Shown here in pieces: positions 12,530-50,475 of a stretch of 64,000 nt of DNA. The notes under the pieces were generated by a model. That model worked only from the letters and a program-made list of their open reading frames with translations. It was not told the origin of the DNA and did no database searches. Every line of letters starts with the position of its first letter. Within the stretch, counting starts at the first letter, position 1. The DNA comes from Bacteroidales bacterium (GTDB lineage Bacteria > Bacteroidota > Bacteroidia > Bacteroidales > UBA1715). The stretch covers positions 15,428 to 79,427 of the forward strand of contig JAGCOW010000096.1 of the NCBI GenBank assembly GCA_017642535.1. Direction: 5' to 3'. A program made the position numbers and the translations under genes.

Positions 12530-12543
12530 AAACGTTCTGACCC

Positions 12544-24279: not shown

Positions 24280-25284
24280 ATGAACTCACTCAAAGGGAAA
24301 AATTTCCTCAAATTATTGGATTTCACTCCTGAAGAAATCCGTTATTTTCTTGACTTGGCAAAGAAACTGAAAGCCGACAAAAAGAATGGTTGCGAAAAAC
24401 AGACAATGAAAGGTAAAAATATTGCCTTGATTTTTGAAAAAACTTCGACACGCACCCGCTGCTCGTTTGAAGTTGCCGCAGCCGACCAAGGTGCACACAC
24501 AACGTATCTTGGCCCAACTGGCTCACAAATTGGCGTGAAAGAATCTATGAAAGATACGGCGCGTGTTCTTGGTCAAATATACGATGCCATTGAATATCGT
24601 GGTTATGGTCAATCTATTGTGGAAGATTTGGCAAAATACTCAGGCGTGCCTGTTTGGAACGGTTTGACCAACGAGTTTCACCCAACACAGATTCTTGCCG
24701 ATTTTATGACTATGGAAGAACACAGTACAAAACCGTTGAACAAAATCAGTTACGCATATCTTGGCGATGCTCGTTTCAATATGGGTAACTCACTGATGGT
24801 TGGTGGCGCAAAAATAGGAATGGACGTTCGCATTGTTGCTCCCAAGGCTTTGCAACCAAGTGCAGAACTGATACAAACATGCCAAGAGATTGCAAAACAA
24901 ACAGGTGCTACGGTTACCGTAACCGACAATGTAATGGAAGGCGTGAAAGGATGTGATTTCCTTTACACCGACGTATGGGTTTCTATGGGCGAGCCTAAAG
25001 AAGTATGGGCAGAACGAATCACATTGCTGAAACCATACCAAGTCAATGCAGAGGTAATGATGTTGACGGGTAACCCGAACTGCAAATTTATGCACTGTCT
25101 GCCTGCATATCACAATCTTGAGACACAAGTTGGTCGCGAAGTTTTTGAAGAATTTGGCCTCGACGGCGTTGAAGTTACCGAAGAAGTGTTCGAATCACCT
25201 GCTTCCATCGTTTTTGACGAGGCAGGAAACCGTATGCACACAATCAAAGCCGTTATGGTTGCAACATTAGGCGAAGAGTGTTAG
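24280..25284 (+). CDS. argF: Ornithine carbamoyltransferase (classical OTCase type)
   Basis: The motifs [21 protein letters not shown] and HCLP are present. The track ORF begins at 24193, but the ATG at 24280 ([19 protein letters not shown]) gives a canonical 334-aa OTCase. Confidence 0.9.
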
Positions 25285-26189
25285 AACGTTTTTTTGAAAA
25301 AAGTCTTACGTATAGGATAGTAATCGGTTCTTTTGTAACCGTGTTGCTATCCTTATTTGTTTTCCTTATTGGCTACATATTCGCACCGAAATGCAATGGG
25401 CTGAACGGATTACAACTTTTGGCAAAATCAAATCTCGGCACAACCGAAATATGGTGTGTATTGTATATGCTCACCATTGAAACAATCTGCATTTTTCTGA
25501 TACCAGCATATTGTTTTTTTGTCTCGCTGTACAAAAATCCTCGTTTGATATTACGGCAACGACGTTACACGTGGAGGGAAATACTTCGTTCACCGCTCAT
25601 TTTGACCTTGGTTTTCATTACCCTGGCTAACATTCCAGGCATAAACCTTCTTTCACAACTCAACACCGACGGCATTTTATGCATTGTTGGCGAAGATTCA
25701 GACCTTTGGACCAATTACCAACGAATGAATGACTTTACGGAAATGCTTCTTGCAAACAGCAATTCTATGATTCTCAATATTGTATGTATGGCATTCGTGC
25801 CAGCAATCTGTGAAGAGATATTCTTTCGTGGTTTGTTACAAACCATAACGACAAACATCGTAAAAAACGTACACGTTGCCGTACTACTCGTTGCCGCCAT
25901 CTTCAGTTTTTTGCACGGTGACGTATTCAATTTTATTCCACGATTTGTTTTGGGAGTCTTTTTGGGTTACTTATTTATTTTCACACAAAACATTTTTTAC
26001 CCCATTCTTGCCCATTGCCTACACAATGCGAGCGTCGTACTGCTAAGCTCCGTTACGTCGTACAGCGAAGAATTGGAAACAATTGGCACAACCGACAACA
26101 AAGTGCTGCTCGGCATAGCAAGTTTGCTGATTTTGGCAGGATTCACGACAAGTCTTATCACTTCTCTATCACAAAATACTCAAAAGTAA
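25278..26189 (+). CDS. CPBP family intramembrane glutamic endopeptidase (CAAX protease-like)
   Basis: 303 aa, multi-pass membrane protein. It has the motifs [10 protein letters not shown] and FSFLHG. Confidence 0.85.
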
Positions 26190-26218
26190 TTTTTTCGTCA
26201 GCGGCGGAAGTAAAAAAT

Positions 26219-26246
26219 CCAACCTCTGCCCCGATATGGCACACCT
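26219..26246 (+). promoter_or_regulatory. Conserved 28-nt cassette-head element, copy 1
   Basis: The sequence is CCAACCTCTGCCCCGATATGGCACACCT. It ends 30 nt before the ATG at 26277 and aligns without gaps to the four other copies. Confidence 0.8.
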
Positions 26247-26276
26247 ACATTGTTTATTTGTCGAAAAAATAAAACA

Positions 26277-26861
26277 ATGGAAATAGAATTTTACGAAGAA
26301 AAAGACTTGACGGAAACGTACAAGCAGTTGAAAAAGATGATTGCCACTGTTTTGGGCGAAAACGAGTTTGAAACCATCACAAACGCTGAAGCGAAAGTTG
26401 TGGCGAATGGTATTTGGGAAAGTTGCTACAAAGTATCTTGGATATCTATTGATTACCTTGATGTAAAGCATTTTCTTGCTGGCGAAAATGGAGATGAAAC
26501 CACGTGCGAGAAGGCAATTTTTGCCTCGAGTGGTTATGGAAAAACGCTCAAAGAAGCGTACGAAAATGCGTTGAAACACCCTTTTATCAACGATTTTCAA
26601 CCGCAGTGTAAAGAAGATTTCAGCACATTGCAGTTTCCACATAGAATTATGATGCTTATTGCCGTTAACAACGTAGAAAACGAACCTACTACAGGGGAAC
26701 TTGAGGAAGTATTTTCGTATCTTCATAAGTCTCAAGATGATACCTATATTTTAAGGAATTATTTATTGGACGAATCAATGACGGAAGCTATACGAGTATG
26801 TTTGGTGGTAGTGAAAAACACCGAAATGGTAATGGCAAACAGAAATTTGAAAAACTCTTAA
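26277..26861 (+). CDS. FtsZ C-terminal-domain-like protein (H7 helix, T7-like loop and C-domain only)
   Basis: 194 aa from the ATG at 26277 (the track starts at 26250). Aligned by eye to FtsZ: ISIDYLDVKHFL vs NVDFADVKTVM; AIFASSGYGKTLKEAYENALKHPFI vs AMMGSGVASGEDRAEEAAEMAISSPLL; RIMMLIAVNN vs GVLVNITAG; LLDESMTEAIRVCLVVV vs LDPDMNDELRVTVVAT. There is no tubulin GTPase domain. Confidence 0.55.
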   Translation: MEIEFYEEKDLTETYKQLKKMIATVLGENEFETITNAEAKVVANGIWESCYKVSWISIDYLDVKHFLAGENGDETTCEKAIFASSGYGKTLKEAYENALKHPFINDFQPQCKEDFSTLQFPHRIMMLIAVNNVENEPTTGELEEVFSYLHKSQDDTYILRNYLLDESMTEAIRVCLVVVKNTEMVMANRNLKNS

Positions 26862-26965
26862 AAGAGTATTGGATAAAAAACGATAGTGATATTTCATAAC
26901 TAAAACAAATTCATCTATCAATGTAAATTTCATAAATATGTCAGACCATAAACAAAACATACTCC

Positions 26966-27697
26966 ATGTCTAATATATATTTGTCGCATATAGTTAACAC
27001 CCATACACCAAGAAAGGACGACAAATATCCGTTCAACATCCCAGCCATAAAGCGTTTGAATACGTTTGTATTTACCTCGAGTGTGACATATTTCATTGGC
27101 GAGAATGGAACTGGAAAATCAACATTGTTGGAAGCAATTGCCGTAAAAATGGGAATGAACGCAGAGGGAGGAGGACTGAATTTTAATTTCAGAACCAAAG
27201 AAACTCATTCAAAATTGTACGAAGAATTACGTTTTACGAGAACAAGTTATCGGTTGTCTGATAATTTTTTCTATCGTGCCGAAAGTTTTTATAATGCAAT
27301 CTCGTATCTCGATTCTCTTTGGTCTGATGGAAATCCTTTTTCTTCATATGGAGGTGAAAACCTTCACGAATTCAGCCATGGTGAAGGTATGGTCCGTTTT
27401 TTTGAAAATCGCTTGAAACAAGGTTTTTTCATTTTTGACGAACCAGAAGCAGCGTTGTCGTATCAGAACCAACTGAGATTTTTAGTTTGGTTGCATAGAG
27501 CGGTAGAGGCAGGCAGTCAAATTATTATTGGTACACATTCGCCTGTTATTCTTGCGTATCCCGATGCCAAGATTTATCTTTTGGACGAAATAGGTTACCA
27601 CGAAACGACCTACGAAGACAGCTATATTTACAATGACATGCGTTCGTTTGTCAACAATGTTTCGTTAATTCAGAAAGAATTGGGACTGACAAAATAA
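26966..27697 (+). CDS. Small ABC-type AAA ATPase (COG3910-like predicted ATPase)
   Basis: 243 aa. It has Walker A GENGTGKST, an SHGE signature-like motif, Walker B FIFDEPE and an H-loop GTHSP. Confidence 0.8.
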   Translation: MSNIYLSHIVNTHTPRKDDKYPFNIPAIKRLNTFVFTSSVTYFIGENGTGKSTLLEAIAVKMGMNAEGGGLNFNFRTKETHSKLYEELRFTRTSYRLSDNFFYRAESFYNAISYLDSLWSDGNPFSSYGGENLHEFSHGEGMVRFFENRLKQGFFIFDEPEAALSYQNQLRFLVWLHRAVEAGSQIIIGTHSPVILAYPDAKIYLLDEIGYHETTYEDSYIYNDMRSFVNNVSLIQKELGLTK

Positions 27698-27711
27698 AAA
27701 GTCACATTTTT

Positions 27712-27739
27712 CAAACCTCTGCCTTGATTTGGCATAGGT
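27712..27739 (+). promoter_or_regulatory. Conserved 28-nt cassette-head element, copy 2
   Basis: The sequence is CAAACCTCTGCCTTGATTTGGCATAGGT. It is followed 6 nt later by a perfect -7 box, TATGTTTG (27746-27753). Confidence 0.8.
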
Positions 27740-27798
27740 TGAGAATATGTTTGCGAAGTTTTTAATTTAAAAGTTGTGCCCGACACATATTAGGGATT

Positions 27799-28011
27799 AT
27801 GGATATGAACGATTATTATTTTTACGTTGCCCCAGACGAAGATGGTATGGGATGGGAATTTACGATTAGAGAGTTAATTGATATGGAATTCAAATCCAAT
27901 CCTGATAATTTTCCCGACAAAACCGCAAAAACAGAATTCTTAAAAAAGTTGATTGCCGATGTTGAGGAGTGTATCAAAAAAGTGGAAAACGATAGTGAAA
28001 TCAATAACTAA
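27799..28011 (+). CDS. Hypothetical small acidic protein (70 aa)
   Basis: The ORF starts 45 nt after the -7 box of element copy 2. I recognised no family. Confidence 0.5.
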   Translation: MDMNDYYFYVAPDEDGMGWEFTIRELIDMEFKSNPDNFPDKTAKTEFLKKLIADVEECIKKVENDSEINN

Positions 28012-28063
28012 ACGGAGATGCCGAAAGCCGTAAGTGGAGGCAAAAATTAAAAATATTAATAGT

Positions 28064-28201
28064 ATGTATCAATTAAATTTTCCGAACGGAAACGTTCAAA
28101 CGTACAGTTCACAAGGTGAATTGTTGAATGCGGCACGACTTTTAGGTGGCGAAGCAAAATTTATTAATGGTAAAATCTATGCTTTCGTGCCGAAAAAGTA
28201 G
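28064..28201 (+). CDS. Hypothetical mini-protein (45 aa, MYQLNFPNGNVQTYSSQGELLNAARLLGGEAKFINGKIYAFVPKK)
   Basis: Read by hand because it falls below the track's size cut-off. The ATG is at 28064 and the stop at 28199-28201, immediately followed by a hairpin terminator. Confidence 0.35.
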   Translation: MYQLNFPNGNVQTYSSQGELLNAARLLGGEAKFINGKIYAFVPKK

Positions 28202-28209
28202 GATTGTGG

Positions 28210-28241
28210 CGGCAAGATGATAAATTCGTCTTGCCGTTTTC
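28210..28241 (+). terminator. Intrinsic terminator closing the two-mini-ORF cassette
   Basis: The sequence is CGGCAAGA-tgataaattcg-TCTTGCCG followed by TTTT. It overlaps the track's extended start (28217) of the next ORF, which argues for the later ATG. Confidence 0.65.
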
Positions 28242-28267
28242 TGAAAAAAACAATATTTTTGAAAACA

Positions 28268-29245
28268 ATGAGTATGGATTTGTTATCAATTTGGAGAAAC
28301 GGAATGTTTGGCGTCATTGTTGGCGACGCTCTTGGATGTCCTGTAGAATTTGAGGAACGGGAAATACGCGACAACGACCCAGTTGAGGATATGCGAGAAT
28401 ATGGCTCTTTCAATCTGCCTCGTGGTAGTTGGACCGACGACAGCAGTATGGCTTTGGCGGAGATTGACAGTATCATTGAATGCAACGGGATTGATTTAAA
28501 ACACATAATGAACTGTTTCTCGCATTGGTATCACTCAGGCGAATATACACCTTTTGGAGATGCATTTGACATTGGCAATACTGTTCAACGTGCAATATCA
28601 AGATTTTCAAGGGAGGGAAATCCTTATACGTGTGGCGGTGTTAGCGACTATGACAACGGTAACGGTTCACTGATGCGTATTATGCCCATTTGCCTTTATT
28701 GCTATCAGAAGGGACTAAAAGGAGAAAAATGTGATGAAGCCATTCAACTTATTCATGCTGTATCAGGATTGACTCACAATCATTTGCGTTCTAAAATTGC
28801 TTGTGGACTTTATTATTTTATTGTCTGCGAAATACTTGACGGGGTAGGCACTCTGACAGATAGGCTACAAACAGGACTTGACAAAGGATTTGCCTACTAC
28901 GAGTTCAAAGATGGAACCGTTGAGGAGGAATTGCAATATTTCAATCGTATCTACAATGTAAAAGAATTTGCATTGACTCCCAAAGACGAAATTCAAAGCG
29001 GCGGTTACGTAATTGACTCTATCGAGGCTACGATTTGGTGCCTTGCCAATAGTTCCCAATACGATGAATGTACTTTGATGGCTGTTAATTTGGGCGACGA
29101 CACCGACACGACAGCAGCAATTGCAGGAGGATTGGCAGGACTTTATTACGGCACCGACGGCATGCCACAAGAATGGCTCAACTGCATTCAACGAAAAGAA
29201 TGGATCGAGGGGCTTTGTGAAAAGGTGGTTACAATTTTGTTGTAA
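28268..29245 (+). CDS. ADP-ribosylglycohydrolase (ARH/DraG family)
   Basis: The motifs are GVIVGDALGCPVEFE, SWTDDSSMAL and GDDTDTTAAIAGGLAGLYYG. A -7 box TATTTTTG (28254-28261) sits 6 nt before the ATG at 28268, implying a leaderless or short-leader mRNA. Confidence 0.9.
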   Translation: MSMDLLSIWRNGMFGVIVGDALGCPVEFEEREIRDNDPVEDMREYGSFNLPRGSWTDDSSMALAEIDSIIECNGIDLKHIMNCFSHWYHSGEYTPFGDAFDIGNTVQRAISRFSREGNPYTCGGVSDYDNGNGSLMRIMPICLYCYQKGLKGEKCDEAIQLIHAVSGLTHNHLRSKIACGLYYFIVCEILDGVGTLTDRLQTGLDKGFAYYEFKDGTVEEELQYFNRIYNVKEFALTPKDEIQSGGYVIDSIEATIWCLANSSQYDECTLMAVNLGDDTDTTAAIAGGLAGLYYGTDGMPQEWLNCIQRKEWIEGLCEKVVTILL

Positions 29246-29314
29246 TAAAGTGCTTTTGCATTGCTTTTATCTTGAAGAAATAATAAATTTGGTCAATAAT
29301 AAACAATTAATACA

Positions 29315-30192
29315 ATGAACTTGACATCCACCCCCAAAAAGAAGAATAAGGAAACGGTTAATCAACAACTGAATAAACTATTCAGCAAGTGGAAAGAAAA
29401 ACGTCATTATGACGAGTCTGTTTTTGTTAGTGATGGTTTGGTGTACAAGAATGCCCCTTGGAAAATGGAGAAAGAAGAAGAACTTGCTGGAACGAAAACT
29501 GATGTCAAAATTGACAAATTATGGAAAGAATCACCTTTGCGGATAGTATTTCTTCTTAAAGATACTCCGGATACTTGGGGAGACGATATTCGTCAATGGA
29601 TGATTTTAGATACTAAAGAAAGTACACAGTGTCGCAACTTGTCAGGTGGTCGAGTTGGTCGAACAGGATTCCTTCCCAACATTGCAAAAATATTATTTGG
29701 AATACGTTATATTAAAGAGTTGAAATACGATAATTTTGAGGATTTCAAAAAAAATATACAGAACGGATAGTGAAATCTTGGAACAAACTACCGTTTGCTT
29801 TTGTTGAAACAAAAAAAATTGCAGGAAACCCAAATGTGTCAATCAAAGAAATACAAGAGTTTTTGAAAAATGATGGTGAATTCCTTATGCAAGAGTTAGA
29901 TTACTTACAACCCAATGTGATAATTTGTACTTGTGACCCTCAATTTGATTTTATCACAACAAAATATCTTGCTAATGAGGTGATTGATGAAAGTGATAAA
30001 AAAGTATATAAGTATCCTTATGATCCGTATTTCGATTGTTGTTTATGGTACTATCACGAAAGGAATATTGCGGTTGTTAAATCGTATCATCCAACTAATC
30101 GAGGAAAGATCCAGTGGACTATTTTCGAACGTGTAGTAAGTCCGTTTAGGAAATTGTTGAAAGAGAATCCTCAATTCTTTGAAAAATTGTAA
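29315..30192 (+). pseudogene. Single gene split by a frameshift at an A8 tract (track ORFs 29315-29770 and 29770-30192); possible UDG-superfamily-like fold
   Basis: Frame 1 stops at 29768-29770. The second frame is open from 29740, so the two ORFs overlap across A8 (29747-29754). A 1-nt change would fuse them into a protein of roughly 290 aa. RIVFLLKDTP, NVIICTCD and SYHPTNRG are laid out like a UDG-like fold (weak evidence). Confidence 0.55.
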
Positions 30193-30330
30193 ATATAAAA
30201 TCTTATTTCAAGATTGACTAAGATAAAAATACGACACAAAGGGAATCCAAAGTTTTCGTCCACCCTGTTTTTCTCATAGCCTAATGAAAACAACTGAAAT
30301 AGAGTTTCAAAAAAAATGAAATAATAATAA

Positions 30331-30358
30331 TCTGCATCTGCCTTGATTTGACACACCT
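30331..30358 (+). promoter_or_regulatory. Conserved 28-nt cassette-head element, copy 3
   Basis: The sequence is TCTGCATCTGCCTTGATTTGACACACCT. It is followed by a TTTCTTTG near-consensus -7 box, and the ATG at 30388 lies 29 nt after the element. Confidence 0.75.
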
Positions 30359-30387
30359 ACTTATTTTCTTTGCAGAAAAAAATAGCT

Positions 30388-30690
30388 ATGGATGCAAAAA
30401 AGTTTTTAGCAAAAGTATCGGTATTGTGTGATAATGAACGATATTGCGAGTTAATTGATGAGATTGATGCCACTAATGTACGTATTGCAGAGTTGAAAAA
30501 AACATTTGAAGAGGAACGTTCAGCAATGATGATGAAGACGATTCCTCCCGAAATGACAGAGCGACATTTAATTTTTTTTGAAAAGTTGGAAAAGCTCGTA
30601 TTACAACGCTATGAAGACTATCACGACGAATTGCTCGAGGAAGTTTGTTCCATACAAACGCTTATTAGCCGACATGACCGACAGTGTTAA
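30388..30690 (+). CDS. Hypothetical small helical protein (100 aa)
   Basis: The ATG at 30388 is preferred over the TTG at 30370. It has coiled-coil-like composition and no recognised family. Confidence 0.5.
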   Translation: MDAKKFLAKVSVLCDNERYCELIDEIDATNVRIAELKKTFEEERSAMMMKTIPPEMTERHLIFFEKLEKLVLQRYEDYHDELLEEVCSIQTLISRHDRQC

Positions 30691-30748
30691 AGACATGCGA
30701 TTAATAGAAATTTTTATAAATTTGAAAATTTATTAAATCTTTGGTTAT

Positions 30749-31945
30749 ATGGATATTCAAAAAGAACTTGAACAATGGGCAAAAGAAACTGTCGAGAAAT
30801 ATCATAATATCGCGGTTCGTCCAGAGGTAAATACAGCTTACTATACTCAATCAGACCTATCTCGACTTATAGAAAAGCCAGAACTGATGATTATTGGCAT
30901 TAATCCAGGCAGTTATTCAACTTACAAAGAACAACGTGAAAACAAAAATTGGTCATATTTGTATAAAAACCCATATGACCAAAATCATCTGTTAAAAGGC
31001 AATTATTGTCATGAGGAAGGAAAACCTTCATCTTGGGATTGTCATAGAAAGTGGGGATATTGGAATCGCTTAAAATCGTGTTTGTCAAAGACAGACAGCC
31101 TATTAGATATTATTGACGATGACAGCAAGATAATAATCACTAATGCTTCTTTTTTTAGCACAAAAAAAGCTAATGAAATTTCTGAGTCATTGCTTATAGA
31201 AACAATTCCTTATACACTTAAATTGATAAGCAAAGCGGAACCAAAACATATAATTTTTCTTAGTGGTGAGAAATGTTTTGAAAGACTCTTCATTTTGTCA
31301 AAAAACTCAAAGGAGATTCAGTTTGAATATAAAAATGTTTGCGGAAATATATATGTGGGGCTTCTTAATGAGAGGTTATGTATTGGCATTCCACATCCAA
31401 CTTATAAAACAAAAGAAGAAATAAATCTTGTTGCTTCTGTCCTCCCTTATCTTATCAACGCTGAAAACTATAAAAGTATAGATGTTGCATCAATACAAAA
31501 AGAATGTGCTAATCAAATTAACGCTTTTTATGAAAAAGTGAGAAATGGTAATACCCATAATGCAAGTCGAGAACATATTCACATAAACAAAGAAAACATC
31601 GTAAAACAAGTAAATAATGAAATCGAACTTAGCTGTTATGAACCCAAAGGGAATACAAATAGGTATAAGTTAAATGACAAGTATGGAATAACTGTTACAA
31701 ATGTTGGCAAAGGATATATTGGAATCAGACATGTCAATTATACTTCTAATGGTTATGAAAATACCCAAGACAAAGAAGTGATTAAGTTGAAAGATTTTTT
31801 TAATAATTGCGGGTATAACATACACGAAAAAACCTGGATAGCCACAAAAACATTTAATCTATTTGGTCGTGATAACAATGAAATCGTGAAAAAAATTCTC
31901 GAAGAAGTAAGAAAACTGAAAGAACTTGAATTTTTTAAGAATTGA
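30749..31945 (+). CDS. Hypothetical protein with an N-terminal UDG-superfamily-like domain (GINPG motif)
   Basis: 398 aa. PELMIIGINPGS matches the MUG/TDG-type GINPG motif, and HIIFLSGEK and GIPHPTYK follow the UDG-fold order. The C-terminal half, about 150 aa, is unassigned. Confidence 0.45.
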   Translation: MDIQKELEQWAKETVEKYHNIAVRPEVNTAYYTQSDLSRLIEKPELMIIGINPGSYSTYKEQRENKNWSYLYKNPYDQNHLLKGNYCHEEGKPSSWDCHRKWGYWNRLKSCLSKTDSLLDIIDDDSKIIITNASFFSTKKANEISESLLIETIPYTLKLISKAEPKHIIFLSGEKCFERLFILSKNSKEIQFEYKNVCGNIYVGLLNERLCIGIPHPTYKTKEEINLVASVLPYLINAENYKSIDVASIQKECANQINAFYEKVRNGNTHNASREHIHINKENIVKQVNNEIELSCYEPKGNTNRYKLNDKYGITVTNVGKGYIGIRHVNYTSNGYENTQDKEVIKLKDFFNNCGYNIHEKTWIATKTFNLFGRDNNEIVKKILEEVRKLKELEFFKN

Positions 31946-32059
31946 TAGTTGCTTGACAAACTTAATTGTTTTATTGACAGCGTGTACAATGTTGAACATG
32001 TGTAACTTTTTCTATAAAAAGCTGTTAGAATTAAAAACCAAGAAAGTCCCTCTAATTTT

Positions 32060-32353
32060 ATGAACGTTGAAAAAAAATTATCGGAAATCAGCAAATTGAG
32101 TTTAGAAGAGCAGTATCAACGGCTTCAAGACGCCATTGACGAATTTGATGCAGATATGGAGAAGAAAATAGACCAAAAGTTTTCTCGTGAAAGACAATTC
32201 CAGCTTACAGCAAAGCAAAAAAGAGTGCTTGTACAGGGATTAATGACTCACGAGAATATCATTCCTAAAAAAATGGAAGATGACCGTAACAGATTGCTCA
32301 ATGCACTCTATTCCATATCCAAGGAACTTGAAAATGTAAAAACATCGTCGTAA
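32060..32353 (+). CDS. Hypothetical small helical protein (97 aa)
   Basis: A clean ORF with coiled-coil-like composition and no recognised family. Confidence 0.45.
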   Translation: MNVEKKLSEISKLSLEEQYQRLQDAIDEFDADMEKKIDQKFSRERQFQLTAKQKRVLVQGLMTHENIIPKKMEDDRNRLLNALYSISKELENVKTSS

Positions 32354-32415
32354 TGCCTATAAATGTCACATTTTTTTCTATAACCTTATAATCCAAACTT
32401 AATTTCTTCATTTTT

Positions 32416-32443
32416 CCATCCTCTGCCCTGATATGGCACACCT
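32416..32443 (+). promoter_or_regulatory. Conserved 28-nt cassette-head element, copy 4 (no adjacent ORF)
   Basis: The sequence is CCATCCTCTGCCCTGATATGGCACACCT. It is followed by TTCTTTTG, but only 2- to 12-codon ORFs occur before 32833. Confidence 0.75.
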
Positions 32444-32832
32444 TTGATTTTCTTTTGTAAAAAAAAATGGTATAAATATGCGACGAGATACTCAGTTTGT
32501 ACACGGATTTTTATAACTTGTTTCAATTAAGATTTAATTTTTTTAAATAAAGAGTTAATTAGATACTAACCTTGGCAACCGCATCAAAATATAACTAATT
32601 GACAATCATTCATGACCTTTTTATTTTCGGTACATAATGAAAGTCTGTAAGACTCAGAATCAGTTGTTTAACTATTTTTTTGTATGGTTATCGTAATTTC
32701 GTGTTTAGAAATTTCTATTTTTGTATAAATACTGAAAAAAATGTACCGACAGTATTTTTATAAATAAATTTTTAGTAAAAAAAATGTTTGTTTTACGCAC
32801 GCGATAGTGATGTGCTAGAAAAGGAGGCAAAA

Positions 32833-34314
32833 ATGAATTTAAACATGCAAATTTCAAAGATTAAAGCTATTGATGCATTAAGCTTATCATTACCTTTAGA
32901 TAAAGGATTATATGCTATAACCGGTGAGAATGGGTCTGGAAAAAGCACGGTTATTACATGTGCTTCTAGTTCTTTTTATAATATGAAGATGGTTGATTAT
33001 TTTGGAAAAACCGAAAATGATTCAAAAATATCATTTAAATTAGATACTGGAGAAAAATATTATGCAAAAGATACTTCTGGAAAGTGGTATTCAAGAATAA
33101 ATGGGAAATTTAAAATAAAAGGGTTTTATGAAGGAAGTGTAATATATGGCAATAGATTTAGAACTACAAATTATAATAATTTAAGAAAGCTAGAATACAT
33201 AAATAATGATGTGTTAACAAAAGCAGATGATTATATTCTTCATAATTTAGGTTATATTTTACATAACAACAGAAATTATTACAAAAAGATATTTAAAGCA
33301 TCTTCGAATGAATTAGCCAAAAAACATATTTTCATTAGTGGAGATTTGTTCTTTTATGAAAAAAATGGGAAAATAATTAGTCAATTTCATATGTCGACAG
33401 GTGAGAACCTTCTGATTAGTATCCTTAATTCTTTATTATTACGTAATACAGAAAGATCAGATTTTTCTGAACCATGCCTTATATTACTGGATGAGATAGA
33501 ATTGGCTTTGCATCCCTCTTCTTTAAAGCGATTAGTTGCATTTTTAAAAGATGAATCTGATAAATACAATTATGCAATATATTTTTCAACTCATTCAATA
33601 GAAATAATTGGAGCAATTAAGCCAGATAATATTTTTTTCCTAAATAGACATATAGACAATAGTCTTGAAGTAATAAATCCATGTTATCCTGCTTACGCTA
33701 CTAGAATTCTATATGATCAAGCTGGATATGATTATATAATACTTGTCGAAGATGATTTAGCTAGGGGCATTGTCAATCAAATATTAAGAAAATATTCTCT
33801 GCTTGGAAATAGATTAGTTCATGTGTTACCAGCAGGTGGATACCAAAATGTGATTGATTTGGGAAACGAAGTTGTTAATAGTAATCTAGTTGGAAAGATT
33901 GCAAAAATCATTATTATCCTAGATGGTGATGTAAAAGATGAAACAAGTAAATACATTTCTAAAAATCAAATAAGAAATAACATCCCTATCAATTTTTTGC
34001 CAATTGAAAGTCTAGAAAAATATTTTAAAAAGAATTTGGTGGATAATGTAAATAAGGAATTATTTCATTTTTTGAATGATTATATTTTTCAACAAAAAAG
34101 TTTGTCGGAGATAACACAAGAATATCAAAATTCTGGTGATTATGAAAATGACTCTAATGGGAAAAAATTCTACAAACTAATTGATAATGAGTTACGACAG
34201 CGAAATAAAACTCGTATTGAAATTATTGAACTTGTTGTTGATTTCTTAATGAAAGAAAACAGTAAAAACATTCAAGCTATAGTAAAATTTCTTCAAGAAA
34301 AAATGAAGAATTAA
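32833..34314 (+). CDS. ABC-type ATPase fused to a DUF4435/TOPRIM-like domain (OLD-family / fused PARIS AriA-AriB-like)
   Basis: 493 aa from the ATG at 32833, which is preceded by GGAGG 5 nt upstream. It has Walker A GENGSGKST, signature MSTGE, Walker B LILLDEIELALHP and H-loop STHS. The C-terminal YIILVEDDLARG...LPAGGYQNV...IIILDGD is laid out like TOPRIM/DUF4435. The gene is visibly more AT-rich than its flanks. Confidence 0.7.
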   Translation: MNLNMQISKIKAIDALSLSLPLDKGLYAITGENGSGKSTVITCASSSFYNMKMVDYFGKTENDSKISFKLDTGEKYYAKDTSGKWYSRINGKFKIKGFYEGSVIYGNRFRTTNYNNLRKLEYINNDVLTKADDYILHNLGYILHNNRNYYKKIFKASSNELAKKHIFISGDLFFYEKNGKIISQFHMSTGENLLISILNSLLLRNTERSDFSEPCLILLDEIELALHPSSLKRLVAFLKDESDKYNYAIYFSTHSIEIIGAIKPDNIFFLNRHIDNSLEVINPCYPAYATRILYDQAGYDYIILVEDDLARGIVNQILRKYSLLGNRLVHVLPAGGYQNVIDLGNEVVNSNLVGKIAKIIIILDGDVKDETSKYISKNQIRNNIPINFLPIESLEKYFKKNLVDNVNKELFHFLNDYIFQQKSLSEITQEYQNSGDYENDSNGKKFYKLIDNELRQRNKTRIEIIELVVDFLMKENSKNIQAIVKFLQEKMKN

Positions 34315-34449
34315 TAAATGTTTTACAAGTGATTCATAGCGGATTTTGTTCTGCAACGCCGTATACGCATATAGTTTTATGGGTGCTGTTTTAGTAGTAG
34401 AAAATCGTTTTTATACAATATCAATATTGAGGATATTTCTACCAACCAT

Positions 34450-34467
34450 TTGCCCCTAACGGGGCAA
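34450..34467 (+). other. GC-rich hairpin TTGCCCC-taac-GGGGCAA at the 3' edge of the AT-rich insert
   Basis: A perfect 7-bp stem. There is no clear U-tract, so its role as a terminator is uncertain. Confidence 0.35.
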
Positions 34468-34488
34468 GATTCAAAATCTCTTATTTTT

Positions 34489-34516
34489 CCAACCACTGCC
34501 CTGATATGGCATACCT
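34489..34516 (+). promoter_or_regulatory. Conserved 28-nt cassette-head element, copy 5
   Basis: The sequence is CCAACCACTGCCCTGATATGGCATACCT. It is followed 6 nt later by a perfect -7 box, TATGTTTG (34523-34530), and the ATG is at 34558. Confidence 0.8.
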
Positions 34517-34557
34517 CACGTTTATGTTTGCGCCAGAAAACATAAATAATAAACAAA

Positions 34558-35589
34558 ATGGAAAATGAAACTATACAAAATCCTGTTTCCGAAATCGCAT
34601 TCGATTTGGGAACGGTCAATTCAGTTGTCGTAGGTGGTGGAAACGTGCTTGTTGATGTGCCATCGTGGTTAGGTATTGAAATGGAAAGCAAAGGTCCCAA
34701 AGTTTGCTGCAAGTGGGACGAGGCAAGGAATATGAAAGGGCGGAACATTTCAACGCTTAAAATCATTCAACCAATGAAAAATGACAGTATGTTTTACAAC
34801 AGCGTTGAACTTTTGGTTTTGGAGTTGCTGTTGGAAGCAAAGAAAAAATGTTCCATATCGGCAGAAACGAAAATCGGAATAGGAATCCCTCTGGATTTCA
34901 CGTATGGCGACCGCCTTGTTTTTCGCGAAGCGTTCAAAAACCTTGGATGTAACAATGTGTATCTGATTCCTTCGATTTTTGCCGTTGCAATTGCCCAAGG
35001 ATTGAATGTGAATAATGTCTTGGGCAAAATGATAATTGAAATTGGTGGCGGAAAAACACAGATTGCGGTGATTTGTATGGGCGGAATTGTTGTGTGCGAA
35101 AGTATTCCTATTGGTGGCGAAGCCTTTACAGCGGCGATTCAGGAAGGATTGCGAATCAATCATAATATAAAAGTTAGTGAATGTACGGCGGAAGGAATAA
35201 AGAGAACGTCGGGAACGGCGCTTGTAGATATGGAAAATCCGCAAGCGTACTATGCTGTTTCTGGAGCGCACATAGTCACGGCTGAGCAAATCGAAGTAAA
35301 ACTTTCTCCGAACGAAATAGCCGAATGGCTGCACGAACCATTGACGAAGATTGAAAATGCCGTGTCAAACGTACTGGAACGTGTTCCCCCTGAATTGTTC
35401 AACGACTTTGCTGTTGACGGCATTTGGCTGTCGGGTGGAGGAGCGATGCTATATGGTTTAGCAGAACGTTTGAGCAGAAAAACTAAAATTAAAGTCAAAC
35501 TCGTTGACGAGACATTTTATTCCGTTGCACAAGGCGTTGAAATGGCACTGAAGAATTTAGAGGAAAATCAGTTTATTATAAAATTGTAA
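34558..35589 (+). CDS. Divergent MreB-like actin-fold ATPase
   Basis: 343 aa, collinear with MreB over its full length. IAFDLGTVNS (phosphate-1), IQPMKNDS, IEIGGGKTQIAV (phosphate-2), IPIGGEAF, AEGIKRTSG, LSGGGAML (adenosine) and VAQGVEMAL all appear in order. Confidence 0.8.
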   Translation: MENETIQNPVSEIAFDLGTVNSVVVGGGNVLVDVPSWLGIEMESKGPKVCCKWDEARNMKGRNISTLKIIQPMKNDSMFYNSVELLVLELLLEAKKKCSISAETKIGIGIPLDFTYGDRLVFREAFKNLGCNNVYLIPSIFAVAIAQGLNVNNVLGKMIIEIGGGKTQIAVICMGGIVVCESIPIGGEAFTAAIQEGLRINHNIKVSECTAEGIKRTSGTALVDMENPQAYYAVSGAHIVTAEQIEVKLSPNEIAEWLHEPLTKIENAVSNVLERVPPELFNDFAVDGIWLSGGGAMLYGLAERLSRKTKIKVKLVDETFYSVAQGVEMALKNLEENQFIIKL

Positions 35590-35594
35590 AAGAA

Positions 35595-36161
35595 ATGAAC
35601 GAGAATAACGTTTTACTGCTTGCCGTTGGCGACGGGGCAATCAACATAGTGGAACAAAACATGGAAAAACTTTCGAAACATTTTTCCGTGGCTACAATCC
35701 GCAAAGATGTTTATTTTGATTCCGCTGATGCTCAATGGCAATCAATGCTGAAGTTGGTTGTTCCCCAAAACGTGAAATATGTATGTTTGCTGAATTGTCT
35801 TGGTGGCGACGATGACTTGACAGTACTATCAATCATGAACGCTTGCGTTTCAAGAGATATTTTGGTGATTGGTGCATTGGTGTTCCCATTTTCGTTTGAA
35901 GGAAGTTCACGTTTTCAGTTGGCTGACAGTAAATTGTCGATTATGGAAAAAGGGATTCCTCAATTTGATTCAGTTGAATTTGACGAAGCATGTACAAAGT
36001 ACAACAGTTGTCATTGTATAATAAAATTTTTCAACGACGATATGTTTATACATTTTCCGAATGATTTGTTTTATAAGGCATTGCGGCACTTTAACGAGGA
36101 AATCTGCGATGGAATCATTGCTCACATGAAAGAACTTTCTTACATAATTCCATTCGATTGA
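35595..36161 (+). CDS. Degenerate FtsZ/tubulin N-terminal-domain-like protein
   Basis: 188 aa, starting 5 nt after the mreB-like stop codon. LLLAVGDGAINIV aligns with the VIGVGGGGGNAV T1 loop, and CLGGDDDLT replaces the GGGTGTG T4 loop. ILVIGALVFPFSFEGSSRFQLAD aligns with ILTVAVVTKPFNFEGKKRMAFAE, and HFPNDLF aligns with IPNDKLL. The protein ends at the N/C domain boundary. Confidence 0.55.
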   Translation: MNENNVLLLAVGDGAINIVEQNMEKLSKHFSVATIRKDVYFDSADAQWQSMLKLVVPQNVKYVCLLNCLGGDDDLTVLSIMNACVSRDILVIGALVFPFSFEGSSRFQLADSKLSIMEKGIPQFDSVEFDEACTKYNSCHCIIKFFNDDMFIHFPNDLFYKALRHFNEEICDGIIAHMKELSYIIPFD

Positions 36162-36222: not shown

Positions 36223-37965
36223 TCACTTCTCCTTCCATTCACCGTTATCTTTTATCAACTGAATCAGTGCCTGTACTGCTTCGGCCTCGGGGATATTGCG
36301 ACAAACAAGCGTTTGTTTTTTATACAAATTAACCGTGCCTTTCCCTGCTCCCATGTAGCCATAATCGGCATCGCTCATTTCGCCGGGACCATTGACAATG
36401 CAGCCCATCACGGCTATTTTCAATCCTTTCAGATGCGACGTTTTCGCCTTCACCTCAGCCAAGGCTTTCTCTATGTCGTACAACGTTCTTCCACACGAAG
36501 GACACGAGATATATTCCGTTTTTTCGAATCGGGAACGAGAAGCCTGCAATATGGCAAACGACAAGTCAACTGACTGATTTTCTGCAAAATGCGAGGATTG
36601 AATCATTACACCGTTCAAGAAACCGTCGAGCAACAACGAGCCAAAGTCCATAGCGGCACGAATCTGCAAAGTCGCAAAATCGCTATAGTCATACTTTCGT
36701 GCCAACACAACGGGATTTCTTCTTCCTGCAAGCATTGCATAGAGTTTTCGGGTAAAATAGGTAACGTGAATGTCTTTGTTGTCAAACAAAATAATCGTAT
36801 TGCTTCCCAAATCCGTCGTTTTCAATGTGTCGAGTTCGGCCTCCGAAATCTGCAACACACAAGTTTCTGCTTTGTTATATTCATGCAACGAAACAACAGG
36901 AATCTTTAGAGCATCTTTTTGAATGTAATTTTCCTTCCAAACCCAATCTGCCTTTGTGTTTTCGGAACCAAAGACCATTGGGACGGAATCGCCTCCAATA
37001 CCAGAAACTGCCGTTGTATGATATGGCGAATACGTGTCAATCGCCTTACGAACATCTTCTATCGGCTCAAATTGCAACGGTGTGGCAAACACCTCGTTTC
37101 TATAGTCAACAATGAGTTTACACACTGGTATCTCACTTTCGGGAGCCTCGGTAAGCGAAACGCGAATGGTGTCGCCTATGCCGTCAAGCAACAACGAGCC
37201 GCTTCCCACGGCAGATTTTATACGTCCGTCCTCGCCTGCCCCTGCCTCGGTAACACCAAGATGTATGGGGAAACGACAATCCTCCTCTATCATTCGTTGC
37301 GCAAGCAGACGAGTCGCCTGAACCATAATACGAGTATTGCTTGCCTTTATGGAACACGCAACATTCTTGAAATCAGCATCTTTGCAAATATGAAGAAACT
37401 CCATCATACTCACCACCATGCCTTGTGGCGTGTCGCCATAACGAGAAACAATGCGTTGCGACAGCGAGCCATGATTCACTCCGATACGAATGGCAGTATT
37501 GTTTTGTTTGCACACGGCAAGCAAAGGCAATATATTCTCGCGAATTTTCTCCAATTCTGCCGTATATTCCTCGTCGGTATAGTCGGTTTTTCGCAAAGAA
37601 CCAATATAGACGTAATTTCCCGGATTGATTCTCACCTTCTCCACATATTTTGCAGCCACCAACGCCGCCTGCGGATTAAAGTGAATATCGGCAACCAATG
37701 GCTGTGTGTAACCACGTGCCACAAGTTGTTGCTTGATATTTTTCAGATTTTCAGCTTCCTTTACGCCTTGTGCCGTCAGACGAACATAATCGCCACCTGC
37801 ATCGAACACACGTATGCACTGCTCAACACTCGCCTCGGTATCGTTCGTATTGGTGTTGGTCATTGACTGCAACGCAATGGGATTGTCACCGCCTATTTTC
37901 ACCGTACCAATTTGAATTTCAGGTATTTGCAAACGTGTATATGCAGATTGAATCATTCGAGTCAT
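36223..37965 (-). CDS. ispG: 4-hydroxy-3-methylbut-2-en-1-yl diphosphate synthase (long Bacteroidota form)
   Basis: 580 aa. The N-terminus is IGTVKIGGDNPIALQSMTNT, and the C-terminal 4Fe-4S Cys motifs are SCPSCGRT and GCIVNGPGE. Confidence 0.92.
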   Translation of the reverse strand: MTRMIQSAYTRLQIPEIQIGTVKIGGDNPIALQSMTNTNTNDTEASVEQCIRVFDAGGDYVRLTAQGVKEAENLKNIKQQLVARGYTQPLVADIHFNPQAALVAAKYVEKVRINPGNYVYIGSLRKTDYTDEEYTAELEKIRENILPLLAVCKQNNTAIRIGVNHGSLSQRIVSRYGDTPQGMVVSMMEFLHICKDADFKNVACSIKASNTRIMVQATRLLAQRMIEEDCRFPIHLGVTEAGAGEDGRIKSAVGSGSLLLDGIGDTIRVSLTEAPESEIPVCKLIVDYRNEVFATPLQFEPIEDVRKAIDTYSPYHTTAVSGIGGDSVPMVFGSENTKADWVWKENYIQKDALKIPVVSLHEYNKAETCVLQISEAELDTLKTTDLGSNTIILFDNKDIHVTYFTRKLYAMLAGRRNPVVLARKYDYSDFATLQIRAAMDFGSLLLDGFLNGVMIQSSHFAENQSVDLSFAILQASRSRFEKTEYISCPSCGRTLYDIEKALAEVKAKTSHLKGLKIAVMGCIVNGPGEMSDADYGYMGAGKGTVNLYKKQTLVCRNIPEAEAVQALIQLIKDNGEWKEK

Positions 37966-41550: not shown

Positions 41551-41625
41551 GGTAGCGGGAGCCAGACTCGAACTGACGACCTTTAGGTTATGAGCCTAAC
41601 GAGCTACCAACTGCTCTATCCCGCG
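41551..41625 (-). tRNA. tRNA-Met (CAT), initiator type
   Basis: The reverse complement is CGCGGGATAGAGCAGTTGGTAGCTCGTTAGGCTCATAACCTAAAGGTCGTCAGTTCGAGTCTGGCTCCCGCTACC, which is close to E. coli tRNA-fMet. It has a CAU anticodon loop (CTCATAA) and an unpaired 1:72 position (C:U). Only CC of the CCA end is encoded. Confidence 0.9.
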
Positions 41626-43728: not shown

Positions 43729-43819
43729 GTAGGGTGCCGTACTACGGTAGCCACAAAAATGGCTGCCACAATGTGACAGCCCTACGTGCAACCAAAATCG
43801 AACTAATGTGGTTAAAAAC

Positions 43820-47999: not shown

Positions 48000-48797
48000 T
48001 TAAATATGCACCTCCGTCTGTACTATAAACCTCTTAGGATCAAGCAAGAGACCATACTGAAACGGCATACAGCATTTTGAAAAAAGCACATACATCAAAT
48101 AACAGATGCGGTGGTCGTTGAACGAAGGCTGACAAAGTTCGTCAATGTTCCAACTCCATTCGTTCAAAGGGTCTTTGTCCATGTCGGGACGTGTGTTCCA
48201 AGCTGTTTTGAGTTTTTCATAGGCAAAATCAACGAGTTCATTTCCCAATGTGTTTTCTTCATCAACATAGAAATCATAGTAGATATACGTTTCAATGTCA
48301 GAGTTTATATAGTTCGTCTTACCGCTTGCACACAGGAATTTTATATCACGCTCTACTTCATCATGTTTCTTTCGTGCTTCATCCATCAGTTTTGCAAGTG
48401 TATCGTTAAGTACCAACAACTTACGCACGTTTTCCTCTGTCCAGACAAAGGTTTCGTTCATTTTGGTCTGGCGAAGCTGTAATTTTTCCCGTATTGTTTT
48501 AAGATTTTTTGCTCTGCTTTTGGCATTGCTACTTGATCTACGCGGCCAACCCGTAGTGGAATGACTTTCTTCCCTATCGATGTAATATTCGTTGTAATTA
48601 TTGCACTTAATACTGATGCCGAACGAATCGTAAATATCCTTAAGATGGTCACGGAATGTTCGTTCCGCATACGGTTTGCAGTCGCAATTGAGCGAACATT
48701 TATCCCATTTACCCTGAATTTCCTTAAACGTAATTGGTTCATAATCAGAGATTACCTCCATGAGCCACTGCAATCGTTGAATTTGAACTGATGACAT
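48000..48797 (-). CDS. Putative winged-HTH (HTH_11/YafY-like N-terminus) regulator
   Basis: 265 aa. The N-terminal pattern is QRLQWLMEVISDYEPITFKEIQ...ERTFRDHLKDIYDSFGISI. The C-terminal region of about 170 aa is unassigned. Confidence 0.4.
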   Translation of the reverse strand: MSSVQIQRLQWLMEVISDYEPITFKEIQGKWDKCSLNCDCKPYAERTFRDHLKDIYDSFGISIKCNNYNEYYIDREESHSTTGWPRRSSSNAKSRAKNLKTIREKLQLRQTKMNETFVWTEENVRKLLVLNDTLAKLMDEARKKHDEVERDIKFLCASGKTNYINSDIETYIYYDFYVDEENTLGNELVDFAYEKLKTAWNTRPDMDKDPLNEWSWNIDELCQPSFNDHRICYLMYVLFSKCCMPFQYGLLLDPKRFIVQTEVHI

Positions 48798-48855
48798 TTT
48801 CTTAGAATTTTAAAGTTTATTTTTCTTATTACAATGCAAATGTATATAATAGATG

Positions 48856-48870
48856 TGCGAAATCTTCGCA
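48856..48870. promoter_or_regulatory. Dyad operator-like site TGCGAAATCTTCGCA (site 2)
   Basis: It lies 59-73 nt upstream of the ATG at 48797. In gene orientation it is followed 15 nt later by TTTGCATTGTAA, where TACATTTG forms a perfect -7 box. Confidence 0.65.
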
Positions 48871-48878
48871 CAGTAAAT

Positions 48879-50435: not shown

Positions 50436-50475
50436 CGTTTTTTTTTGATTACAATGCAAAAAAATAAAATGACTG

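Follow-up and report, generated by a model that had tools for sequence, protein, structure and literature searches.

A sequence module that recurs five times in a 64,000-nt stretch of DNA from an uncultured rumen Bacteroidales bacterium (hereafter the window) was analyzed together with related contigs and loci, which are designated by L-numbers (L003 and so on). The explanation best supported by the sequence comparisons, and in our judgment a probable one, is that the module is a promoter carrying an operator for a regulator of the WYL family, and that its copies define a lineage-specific, strain-variable regulon concerned with defence or DNA damage. The evidence comes from the conserved anatomy of the module, from the recurrence of its dyad at the promoters of a WYL-family gene in related genomes, and from the genes that the module heads.

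The repeated module and its promoter

The copies of a 28-nt element (28-mer) start at positions 26219, 27712, 30331, 32416, and 34489. As described in the original prediction, they number five, align without gaps, and all lie on the + strand. A degenerate 24-nt consensus, allowing up to three mismatches, matched exactly five times in the window and not once in 100 dinucleotide shuffles. A scan of the window with the dyad core TGCCNNGATNTGRCA returned the same five copies and one chance match, with one mismatch, at 43764. An nhmmer profile of the 72-nt module gave no sixth copy in the window. The consensus scan, the shuffles, and nhmmer thus agree with the earlier statement that the element is found nowhere else in the 64 kb. 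All five copies are located within a 10-kb island, and there are none across the remaining 54 kb, which contain housekeeping genes.

The ungapped similarity among the copies exceeds the 28-mer and extends over 52-60 nt. Its order is the 28-mer, the -7 box, an A-rich leader of ~15-45 nt, and usually an ATG codon. The module of copy 1 (26207..26272, +) has dyad arms at 26221-26230 and 26238-26247 and the -7 box TTTATTTG at 26253-26260, and it heads geneA (ATG at 26277). Copy 2 (27702..27758, +), the best palindrome of the five, has the -7 box at 27746-27753 and heads open reading frames (ORFs) of 70 and 45 aa. The diverged copy 3 (30325..30385, +), with TGCATCTGCC as its left arm and GACACACC as its right arm, has the -7 box at 30365-30372 and heads a 100-aa ORF (ATG at 30388), a 398-aa gene, and a 97-aa ORF. 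Copy 4 (32408..32469, +; -7 box at 32450-32457) is followed by 390 nt of AT-rich non-coding sequence and then by an ATPase-Toprim gene. Copy 5 (34481..34546, +; -7 box at 34523-34530) has the conserved leader CAGAAAACATAAA and heads the MreB-like and FtsZ-N-like genes.

The -7 box belongs to the TAnnTTTG type and is perfect in copies 2 and 5. It had been placed about 6-15 nt from the element; in all five copies it begins exactly 6 nt past the 28-mer (TTTATTTG, TATGTTTG, TTTCTTTG, TTCTTTTG, and TATGTTTG in copies 1 to 5). A weak -33 element (cTTG/cCTG) is in the middle of the dyad spacer, 19 nt upstream of the -7 box. These two features support the earlier assignment of the element to the -33 region of a Bacteroidetes promoter. 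Bacteroides promoters reportedly follow a -33 TTTG/-7 TAnnTTTG consensus with a spacing of ~19-21 nt. In predicted promoter numbering, the 28-mer spans approximately -47 to -20. An ATG-initiated ORF of at least 30 aa follows 31 of the 34 copies checked and, in all but one case, lies at most ~40 nt from the module end; in the lineage of the window the exceptions are copy 4 and its near-identical counterpart in L026. A T-run had been reported before every copy. It is present only before copies 2, 4, and 5, as copy 1 is preceded by an A-run and copy 3 by AATAATAAT. Judged from these sequence features, each copy is a complete sigma-A-type Bacteroidetes promoter with a predicted transcription start, and the 28-mer is most likely an operator across the -33 region and the spacer.

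From the window and the related contigs, 48 distinct copies were assembled, all of them from rumen or gut Bacteroidales metagenome contigs and from several array loci. Their consensus is TTTT-nAAACCTCTGCC-YTGATWT-GGCAYACCT-N6-(T/A)TnnTTTG-N3-A-run. The best-conserved columns, CCTCTGCC and TGGCA, are outside the canonical -33 and -7 contacts. The 10-N7-10 palindrome score averages 6.4/10 over the 48 unique copies versus 2.6 at random positions. The ideal operator form is AACCTCTGCC-N7-GGCAGAGGTT, with the core TGCC-N7-GGCA. This core had been recognized in the original prediction, and it recurs across most lineages; the description was incomplete for copy 2, which is a near-perfect palindrome with 10-nt arms (AACCTCTGCC-N7-GGCATAGGTT), 9/10 of them matched.

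The strict core pattern, searched over 185,579 species genomes, was found in four species of rumen or gut Bacteroidales metagenome-assembled genomes (MAGs), and no Bacteroides or Parabacteroides among these species representatives gave a match. In JGI metagenomes, eleven further genuine contigs were obtained. About 11 genome matches and 2 metagenome matches from unrelated phyla have no T-run, -7 box, or leader, and their number fits chance. Apart from such chance matches, the strict pattern is confined to rumen and gut Bacteroidales contigs. Together with its absence from the other 54 kb of the window, this specificity counts in favor of the explanation given above.

It was also considered whether the conserved entity might be an RNA or single-stranded DNA (ssDNA) element, such as a hairpin terminator, an attenuator, or a single-strand promoter, or else a sigma-54 promoter. 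Copy 2 does fold (-14.7 kcal/mol, z = -4.3), and TGGCAC resembles the -24 box of sigma-54 promoters. However, copies 1, 3, 4, and 5 form no stable fold and behave like shuffles (z > -1). A search of the window against Rfam gave no match in the island, the sole match being a tRNA gene at 41553-41625 (-). On these grounds an RNA hairpin or terminator was rejected. Since four of the five copies do not fold, the conserved entity is the double-stranded sequence, that is, a promoter plus an extra conserved site. Sigma-54, the promoters of which have GG-N10-GC (TGGCAC-N5-TTGC) with fixed spacing, was likewise rejected: the GG-to-GC spacing is variable and 1-2 nt short, the TTGC is absent or not conserved, there is no -12 box, and a canonical sigma-A -7 box is instead fixed 6 nt downstream. 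Taken together, an RNA, ssDNA, or sigma-54 element is very improbable. A scanner for sigma-70 promoters and terminators, a tool ill-suited to this phylum, gave background-level output.

Two further candidates were tried and rejected. The non-canonical LexA boxes described for Bacteroidetes, GGA-N5-TCC and CTAA-N5-TTAG (PMC8565304), are both absent from the element, which is thus not one of these SOS boxes. A miniature inverted-repeat transposable element or another transposon was rejected because the repeat search gave no terminal inverted repeats beyond the module.

It should be mentioned that a second short repeat, TTTGCCCCTAACGGGGCAAGATTCAAAAT, forms a GC-rich hairpin at 34449-34476 in the window, just upstream of copy 5. 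It was also found at L012:4975-5006 and 5624-5666, L015:696-736, L023:4169-4200 and 4818-4860, and L024:993-1107, the last just upstream of the L024 module copy. It may be a terminator-like or REP-like element. In the MAG RGIG7965 (L003:4067-4030, -), a second dyad, CCTCTG-N11-CACAGC, is located 37 nt upstream of a copy-5-type module, forming a tandem pair of sites.

The dyad at promoters of a WYL-family gene

In L036, which encodes a homolog 53% identical to the 188-aa FtsZ-N-like protein of the window, one module heads a gene for a protein with winged helix-turn-helix (wHTH), WYL, and WCX domains, followed by a gene for an RNase_T/DEDDh exonuclease. The wHTH-WYL-WCX protein has 2962 homologs at E <= 1e-10, mostly of ~300 aa, 55-60% identical, and from Bacteroidales. 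Its pairing with the exonuclease was found in the seven chromosomal contexts examined, and the flanking genes vary by lineage. We found no description of this operon of a WYL regulator and a DEDDh exonuclease in the searchable literature. In the PDB, a profile of the WYL protein matched PafBC (5.5e-10) along with other WYL-domain regulators of known structure, and the similarity was confined to the WYL-WCX part.

The dyad is present in the same promoter register at eight WYL promoters, namely those of L036, L037, L038, L039, L040, L041, L044, and L045, and nhmmer with a model derived from the window finds WYL promoters with E = 1e-7 to 2e-3. The WYL promoter of L038 carries a perfect 10-bp inverted repeat, TTTTTTCAAACCTCTGCCTTG...GCAGAGGTTT, that is, AAACCTCTGC-N9-GCAGAGGTTT; its left arm and T-run are identical to the window consensus over 21 nt. 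The corresponding dyads are AACCTGTG-N11-CACAGGTT in L037, AACATGTG-N11-CACATGTT in L039, and AACCTGTG-N11-CACATGTC in L044. Those of L036, L040, and L041 have the form (A/T)(A/T)CCTGTG-N11-CACACCA, with the same right arm as most window copies, and these three promoters also have GGCACACC in common with the window copies. Both half-site variants, CCTGTGC...GCACACC and CCTCTGT...GCACAGG, are carried by L040 and L043, which lie on one contig. L038 and the window have the same GC content (0.404), but this proves nothing.

The outer arms of the dyad change by lineage and yet remain palindromic: CCTCTG/CAGAGG, CCTGTG/CACAGG, CATGTG/CACATG, and GAAGTTATGCC/GGCATAACTTC. This is what would be expected of an operator that co-evolves with its protein. 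Furthermore, in L037, L038, and L039 the dyad is solitary, with no array nearby, and so the site belongs to the WYL promoter itself. Published members of the WYL family bind as dimers to palindromes at their own and at target promoters. The original prediction had offered a regulon under one dedicated factor as one of its options, and this option is now favored because the module has its sequence, geometry, and register in common with the dyad of the WYL regulator promoters in related genomes.

In L036, L040, L041, and L044, the WYL operon is directly followed by a variable array, in which three, six, three, and one module copies, respectively, head genes. The module-headed arrays of these loci contain McrBC, GmrSD, PLD, PD-(D/E)XK (PDC-S26), and UDG-like genes; AAA_14/DUF4143 and GyrB-like HATPase genes are also among the variable contents of these downstream islands. 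The islands of L036, L040, and L041 are located between the WYL-DEDDh operon and aspS, and in L037 the operon and aspS are adjacent. Upstream of the WYL operon, L044 encodes a 916-aa Tubulin_2-family protein (L044:1263-4013), which is a further tubulin-superfamily gene product near this regulator, and then a large C1 peptidase and an Endonuclease_NS gene. The prophage contigs L045-L047 encode a WYL homolog 58% identical to the L036 protein, with tail, amidase, and UmuD/UmuC-like genes nearby. At ~12519-12554 of these contigs, a 94-aa gene, the product of which has a faint ZapA match, is headed by a perfect GAAGTTATGCC-N7-GGCATAACTTC palindrome (11-bp arms) followed by a -7 box.

In the mechanism that we propose, the operator would be bound by a dimeric wHTH-WYL-WCX regulator, an ortholog of the product of the conserved Bacteroidales WYL-DEDDh operon. 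The bound regulator would, by analogy with CapW and BrxR, occlude the -33 element and hold the transcription units of the island off. ssDNA arising from DNA damage or phage attack would be sensed, leading to release of the regulator. As a result, the ATPase-Toprim, AAA_21, ADP-ribosylglycohydrolase, and UDG-like genes and the FtsZ and MreB paralogs would be switched on, and these paralogs may act on cell division. Control might also run in the opposite direction, with a PafBC-like activator at the -33 position; the PafBC site replaces or overlaps the -35 element. The location of the -33 TTG at the center of the dyad favors repression by occlusion, and by our rough estimate we lean slightly towards repression.

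Several observations weigh against the WYL interpretation. The 64-kb window contains no WYL gene, and a WYL gene and arrays were seen in one genome only for the related lineages L036, L040, L041, and L044. The best PDB relatives of the WYL protein, PafBC and DriD, are activators. Palindromy is poor in most window copies (5-7/10); their right arm is CACACC and not CAGAGG, and the left TGCC is not strictly kept in the diverged copies. In addition, the entire 60 nt are conserved, which is beyond what an operator alone requires, and common descent of a duplicated promoter accounts for part of the similarity among the modules.

Conservation of the whole ~60-nt module beyond the dyad, the imperfect palindromes of most copies, and the recombination of module copies with one another might also be explained by a strong constitutive promoter that has spread by duplication and recombination in a variable island, with no dedicated regulator and with the dyad incidental. 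Against this, distant lineages change the outer arms and keep both the palindromy and the register, which is the signature of a protein-binding site. The top-conserved columns, CCTCTGCC and TGGCA, lie outside the canonical -33 and -7 contacts, and the site is consistently at the promoter of a gene for a DNA-binding regulator. We consider such a constitutive promoter improbable.

The window itself encodes a protein that might bind the site. The N-terminal ~75 aa of a 265-aa wHTH protein (48000..48797, -) are homologous to the DNA-binding domain of the WYL regulator (hhalign 93.5%, E = 2e-7), and the protein has no WYL domain. Its promoter carries a diverged dyad, cTGTGC-N9-GCACAt (48853..48873, -), followed by the perfect -7 box TACATTTG (48844-48837) in the same register as in the five modules. 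The palindrome at this promoter, TGTGCGAA-gat-TTCGCACA (48870-48852), is perfect. This protein may act on related sites as a second regulator, or may even be the true binder, which is a further point against the WYL regulator.

The operator would then belong to a different transcription factor, either this protein or a small protein of the array, and the WYL operon would be just another member of the regulon. The 265-aa protein does have the DNA-binding domain of the WYL regulator, its promoter carries TGTGC-N9-GCACA in the same register, and its gene is the only one of this kind in the window. However, the dyad of this gene does not have the outer AACC...GGTT arms that are common to the five copies and the WYL promoters, and its palindrome extends inwards (TGTGCGAA/TTCGCACA). 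In the other loci, no relative of the 265-aa protein was seen except the N-termini of the WYL genes. A different transcription factor seems unlikely, and the WYL-family regulator is still the preferred binder. In the neighborhood of the 265-aa gene, a PDDEXK_4 gene comes after it (46503-47834) and a DUF2779/Cas4-like gene before it (48879-50459).

Gene blocks of the island and their junctions

Contigs whose housekeeping flanks are 92-97% identical to those of the window differ from it by whole gene blocks. The comparison of strains suggested in the original prediction therefore did reveal cassette variability among close relatives, with junctions at module edges, although not in every case. 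L021 and L022 have a single hybrid module, the left flank of which is that of copy 4 and the body that of copy 5; at this site, the window has copy 4, the AT-rich leader and the ATPase-Toprim gene (~2 kb in all), and copy 5. Similarly, L033 has one module before geneA (L033:6854), where RGIG7965 has a 1.36-kb insert between two modules (L011:483 and L003:7118). The duplicated segment at this insert consists of the T-run and the 28-mer, ~35 nt.

The variable block 26816-27707, which contains the AAA_21 gene, is absent in L007, L031, and L003. The AAA_21 genes of the window and L034 are 92% identical, and the gene precedes copy 2 in the window and a copy-5-type module in L034. In both it ends with ...ACAAAATAAAAAGyCaCATTTTT directly before the module. 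The left junction of this block is not at a module but inside the 3' end of geneA. L021 lacks another block (29273..30329), which contains the 151- and 140-aa ORFs. On the right, this block joins precisely at the 5' edge of copy 3, and on the left there is only the 4-nt microhomology ATCT. Downstream of the copy-5 module, an FtsZ-like 206-aa gene (Tubulin Pfam 32.7 bits, cut-off 33), an MreB-like gene, and the 188-aa gene are present in L003, the MreB-like and 188-aa genes in the window, and the 188-aa gene alone in L021, L024, L033, and L034. The junction of these gene sets is always at window position 34542-34546.

A second array in the same MAGs (L012, L015, L023, and L027) contains an AAA ATPase gene, an operon of MoxR-type AAA_5, YgjP-peptidase, and DUF2201-VWA genes, and an FtsK-like gene, and is module-headed. 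There, too, the homology between contigs begins at the 5' edges of modules. In L009 and L018, the module heads single genes of unknown function.

On these contig comparisons, cassette-like turnover of genes at the module edges is real. In the proposed mechanism, the repeated module of ~35-60 nt would supply homology for general recombination, by which blocks would be gained, lost, and moved at module edges. The one-sided junctions, together with the absence of a recombinase from the window and the related loci, favor RecA-type recombination between modules and homology-facilitated illegitimate recombination over a dedicated site-specific system.

An integron-like or rAID-1-like array was weighed in this context, in which a dedicated tyrosine recombinase, possibly encoded in trans, would use the 28-mer as its recombination site and capture cassettes that carry promoters. 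Such capture would fit the two inserts flanked by duplicated modules where relatives have one, the different array positions of the AAA_21 gene, which ends each time at a module 5' edge, and the further junctions exactly at module edges. It would also fit the lower GC content of the island (0.345, versus 0.404 in the rest of the window) and the dyad with a 7-nt spacer, which has the geometry of a recombinase core site. However, Pfam searches revealed no recombinase or transposase among ~40 ORFs of the window (the island, its flanks, and ~20 further ORFs), in line with the earlier remark that no recombinase is visible. Among the gene lists obtained for related loci, the precomputed Pfam lists of L033, L034, L036, L040, L041, L043, and L044 likewise contain no integrase or recombinase. 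Several events are one-sided, as at the left junctions of the AAA_21 block and of the 151/140-aa block, and the dyad stands alone at the array-less WYL promoters of L037, L038, and L039. No attC-like structure and no promoterless cassettes were detected, and no immunity families of type VI secretion systems (T6SS) or of other interbacterial systems were found in the window by Pfam, NCBIfam, and PADLOC; one sub-threshold Tli3 match was seen in L036. Capture by a dedicated recombinase is accordingly quite unlikely in our assessment. The cassette-capture option of the original prediction stands as far as the gain, loss, and movement of blocks at module edges is concerned, and fails in that no recombinase was found and several junctions are one-sided. 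A phage origin of the element was rejected, as there was no match in IMG/VR.

The island is bordered by the gene for a CPBP/Rce1-like protease (25278-26189) and by ispG (36223-37965, -), and all of its genes are on the + strand. The first, geneA (26277..26861), encodes 194 aa of no known family. GeneA or a 44%-identical relative was found in most arrays seen end to end, and its 3' end in the window (26816-26861) is replaced relative to the relatives. The earlier description of this protein as FtsZ_C-like is not verifiable, as the AlphaFold model is unusable (predicted local distance difference test (pLDDT) score of 41) and there was no PDB sequence match. The AAA_21 gene (26966..27697) encodes an AAA_21/AAA_15 ABC-type ATPase of 243 aa that is AriA/GajA/PtuA-like. 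After copy 2, the 70-aa ORF (27799..28011) is kept in relatives and absent in L034, and the 45-aa ORF (28064..28201) is kept in relatives. They are followed by an ADP-ribosylglycohydrolase gene (28268..29245; 325 aa), assigned at the family level to DraG/Tri1 and under the equivalog cut-offs (188 bits against Tri1, cut-off 490). The 151- and 140-aa ORFs (29315-29770 and 29770-30192) have no family match. They overlap by 1 nt, the TAG stop and the GTG start sharing position 29770, and they may be one gene split by a frameshift.

After copy 3, a 100-aa protein of no family, predicted to be helical (30388..30690), precedes a 398-aa protein (30749..31945) whose homologs are encoded in the WYL-adjacent arrays of L036 and L041. 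The similarity of the latter to the UDG superfamily, as noted in the original prediction, was seen again; it is weak, and the Pfam match is sub-threshold. The 97-aa ORF (32060..32353) has no family and is conserved in L021 and L022. Copy 4 had been said to head nothing. A 493-aa ATPase-Toprim (OLD-like) defence candidate (32833..34314; GC 27%) begins 390 nt downstream of it, and the protein gave a PADLOC ATPase-Toprim_I-B match (7.5e-39). The genes missing from the list in the original prediction are the ones for the AAA_21 ATPase, the ADP-ribosylglycohydrolase, and the ATPase-Toprim protein and the 151-, 140-, and 97-aa ORFs.

Copy 5 is followed by a divergent MreB paralog (34558..35589; 343 aa; 235 bits against the MreB cut-off of 293), the presence of which varies between relatives, and by the 188-aa FtsZ N-domain-like protein (35595..36161). 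For the latter, the earlier FtsZ_N assignment was confirmed by the predicted structure (pLDDT 72), with FtsZ as the sole fold among the top 50 PDB matches. The FtsZ motif PFSFEG is kept, and the glycine loop is degenerate (GGDDD). No array seen end to end lacks this family. The protein is only 61% identical between the window and L034 (L034:10001-10582), despite an ispG/amylase flank with 96.6% amino-acid identity. Judged from these identities, a core gene of the array seems to have been replaced by another allele or to have strongly diversified.

Relation to known systems and significance

Among known systems, a WYL-regulated defence island or regulon comes closest, with BrxR as one representative (Picton et al. 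2022, PMC9122601; Luyten et al. 2022, PMC9122589). BrxR is an autoregulated WYL-family dimer on inverted repeats with arms of ~10-11 bp. It represses a mosaic defence island on pEFER through two inverted-repeat boxes, the second of which is a poor palindrome with one good half-site (PMC9122601), as are most window copies. In the BrxR boxes, however, the spacer is 5 bp and the position is downstream of the promoter, whereas the dyad described here has a 7-nt spacer and the site straddles the -33 element. The boxes here number five to six, every one of them joined to a complete promoter and gene block of its own, and the island of the window does not contain the regulator gene; the phylum and the type of promoter also differ.

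CapW, a wHTH-WYL-WCX repressor in the cyclic oligonucleotide-based antiphage signaling system (CBASS) that is released by ssDNA (PMC9122588, PMC11662680), has the same domain architecture (WYL + WCX Pfam, ~300 aa) and a palindromic operator in its promoter. Induction by DNA damage or phage, as proposed for CapW, might apply here by analogy. In contrast to the putative regulator of the island, CapW controls one adjacent operon, and the similarity of the Bacteroidales protein to solved WYL proteins is only in the WYL-WCX part.

DriD of Caulobacter and PafBC of Actinobacteria (PMC9186387, PMC10853764), the best PDB relatives of the Bacteroidales WYL family, are autoregulated and have dispersed regulons. 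DriD is stimulated by ssDNA and induces a cell-division inhibitor (PMC9186387); the arrays described here carry FtsZ-N-like, FtsZ-like, and MreB-like genes, and the prophage version a ZapA-like gene. Unlike the repressor proposed here, both are activators, and the DriD site is 17 nt upstream of the -35 element. Their regulons consist of DNA-repair genes, whereas the cargo of the arrays is mostly defence-like or unknown.

Membership in the rAID-1 or integron systems is not supported. The resemblance to rAID-1 is only generic: a same-strand Bacteroidales array with repetitive intergenic sequences, lower GC content, and strain-variable content. rAID-1 requires an adjacent XerD-family recombinase and immunity-gene homologs (Ross et al., bioRxiv 10.1101/471110). 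No XerD-family or other tyrosine recombinase was found among the ~40 window ORFs or in the gene lists obtained for related loci, no recognizable T6SS-immunity homologs were found, the strict core pattern, chance matches aside, was seen in only four rumen Bacteroidales MAG species of the 185,579 species genomes and in no Bacteroides or Parabacteroides, and the repeat is tied to the promoter of a transcription factor. This goes against the rAID-1 option of the original prediction. Integrons likewise have ordered same-strand blocks, a repeated imperfect dyad, and strain variation at the repeat. Here, however, IntI, attI, and Pc are lacking, the repeat is located on the 5' side of the genes and constitutes a promoter, the folded-strand structure of attC is absent, and several junctions are one-sided.

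Compared with known WYL-regulated islands, the distinctive features are one operator-promoter module per transcription unit across several arrays, the joining of these modules to a complete Bacteroidetes promoter with the -33 element inside the dyad, the coincidence of modules with block junctions, the FtsZ/MreB-like cargo, and the conserved WYL-DEDDh operon. Little is known about how defence islands are regulated, and the studied cases, BrxR and CapW, have one or two operators beside the regulator gene. In the present arrays, one operator-bearing promoter seems to be reused before each transcription unit of several hypervariable arrays. A LexA-type SOS system is not known in Bacteroidales, and the WYL-DEDDh operon, with ~3000 homologs, is therefore a concrete candidate for a regulator of the response to DNA damage or of a phage alarm. 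The binding site of this candidate would be evident from the sequences themselves. The truncated or degenerate FtsZ paralogs and the divergent MreB under the module provide a testable lead to damage- or phage-induced control of division, and the coincidence of module edges with gene gain and loss between strains offers a simple model for how genes may join a regulon.

It is also conceivable, if doubtful, that the module is at the same time the site of exchange in a cassette system working without a dedicated recombinase, or with one in trans, and that blocks recombining at the 28-mer gain control by the WYL sensor in one step. If this is true, a rumen Bacteroidales lineage would in this way build up, rearrange, and exchange a co-regulated plug-in regulon made of defence genes and FtsZ/MreB paralogs. 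This would be a functionally integron-like array, the repeated site of which is a regulated promoter instead of attC.

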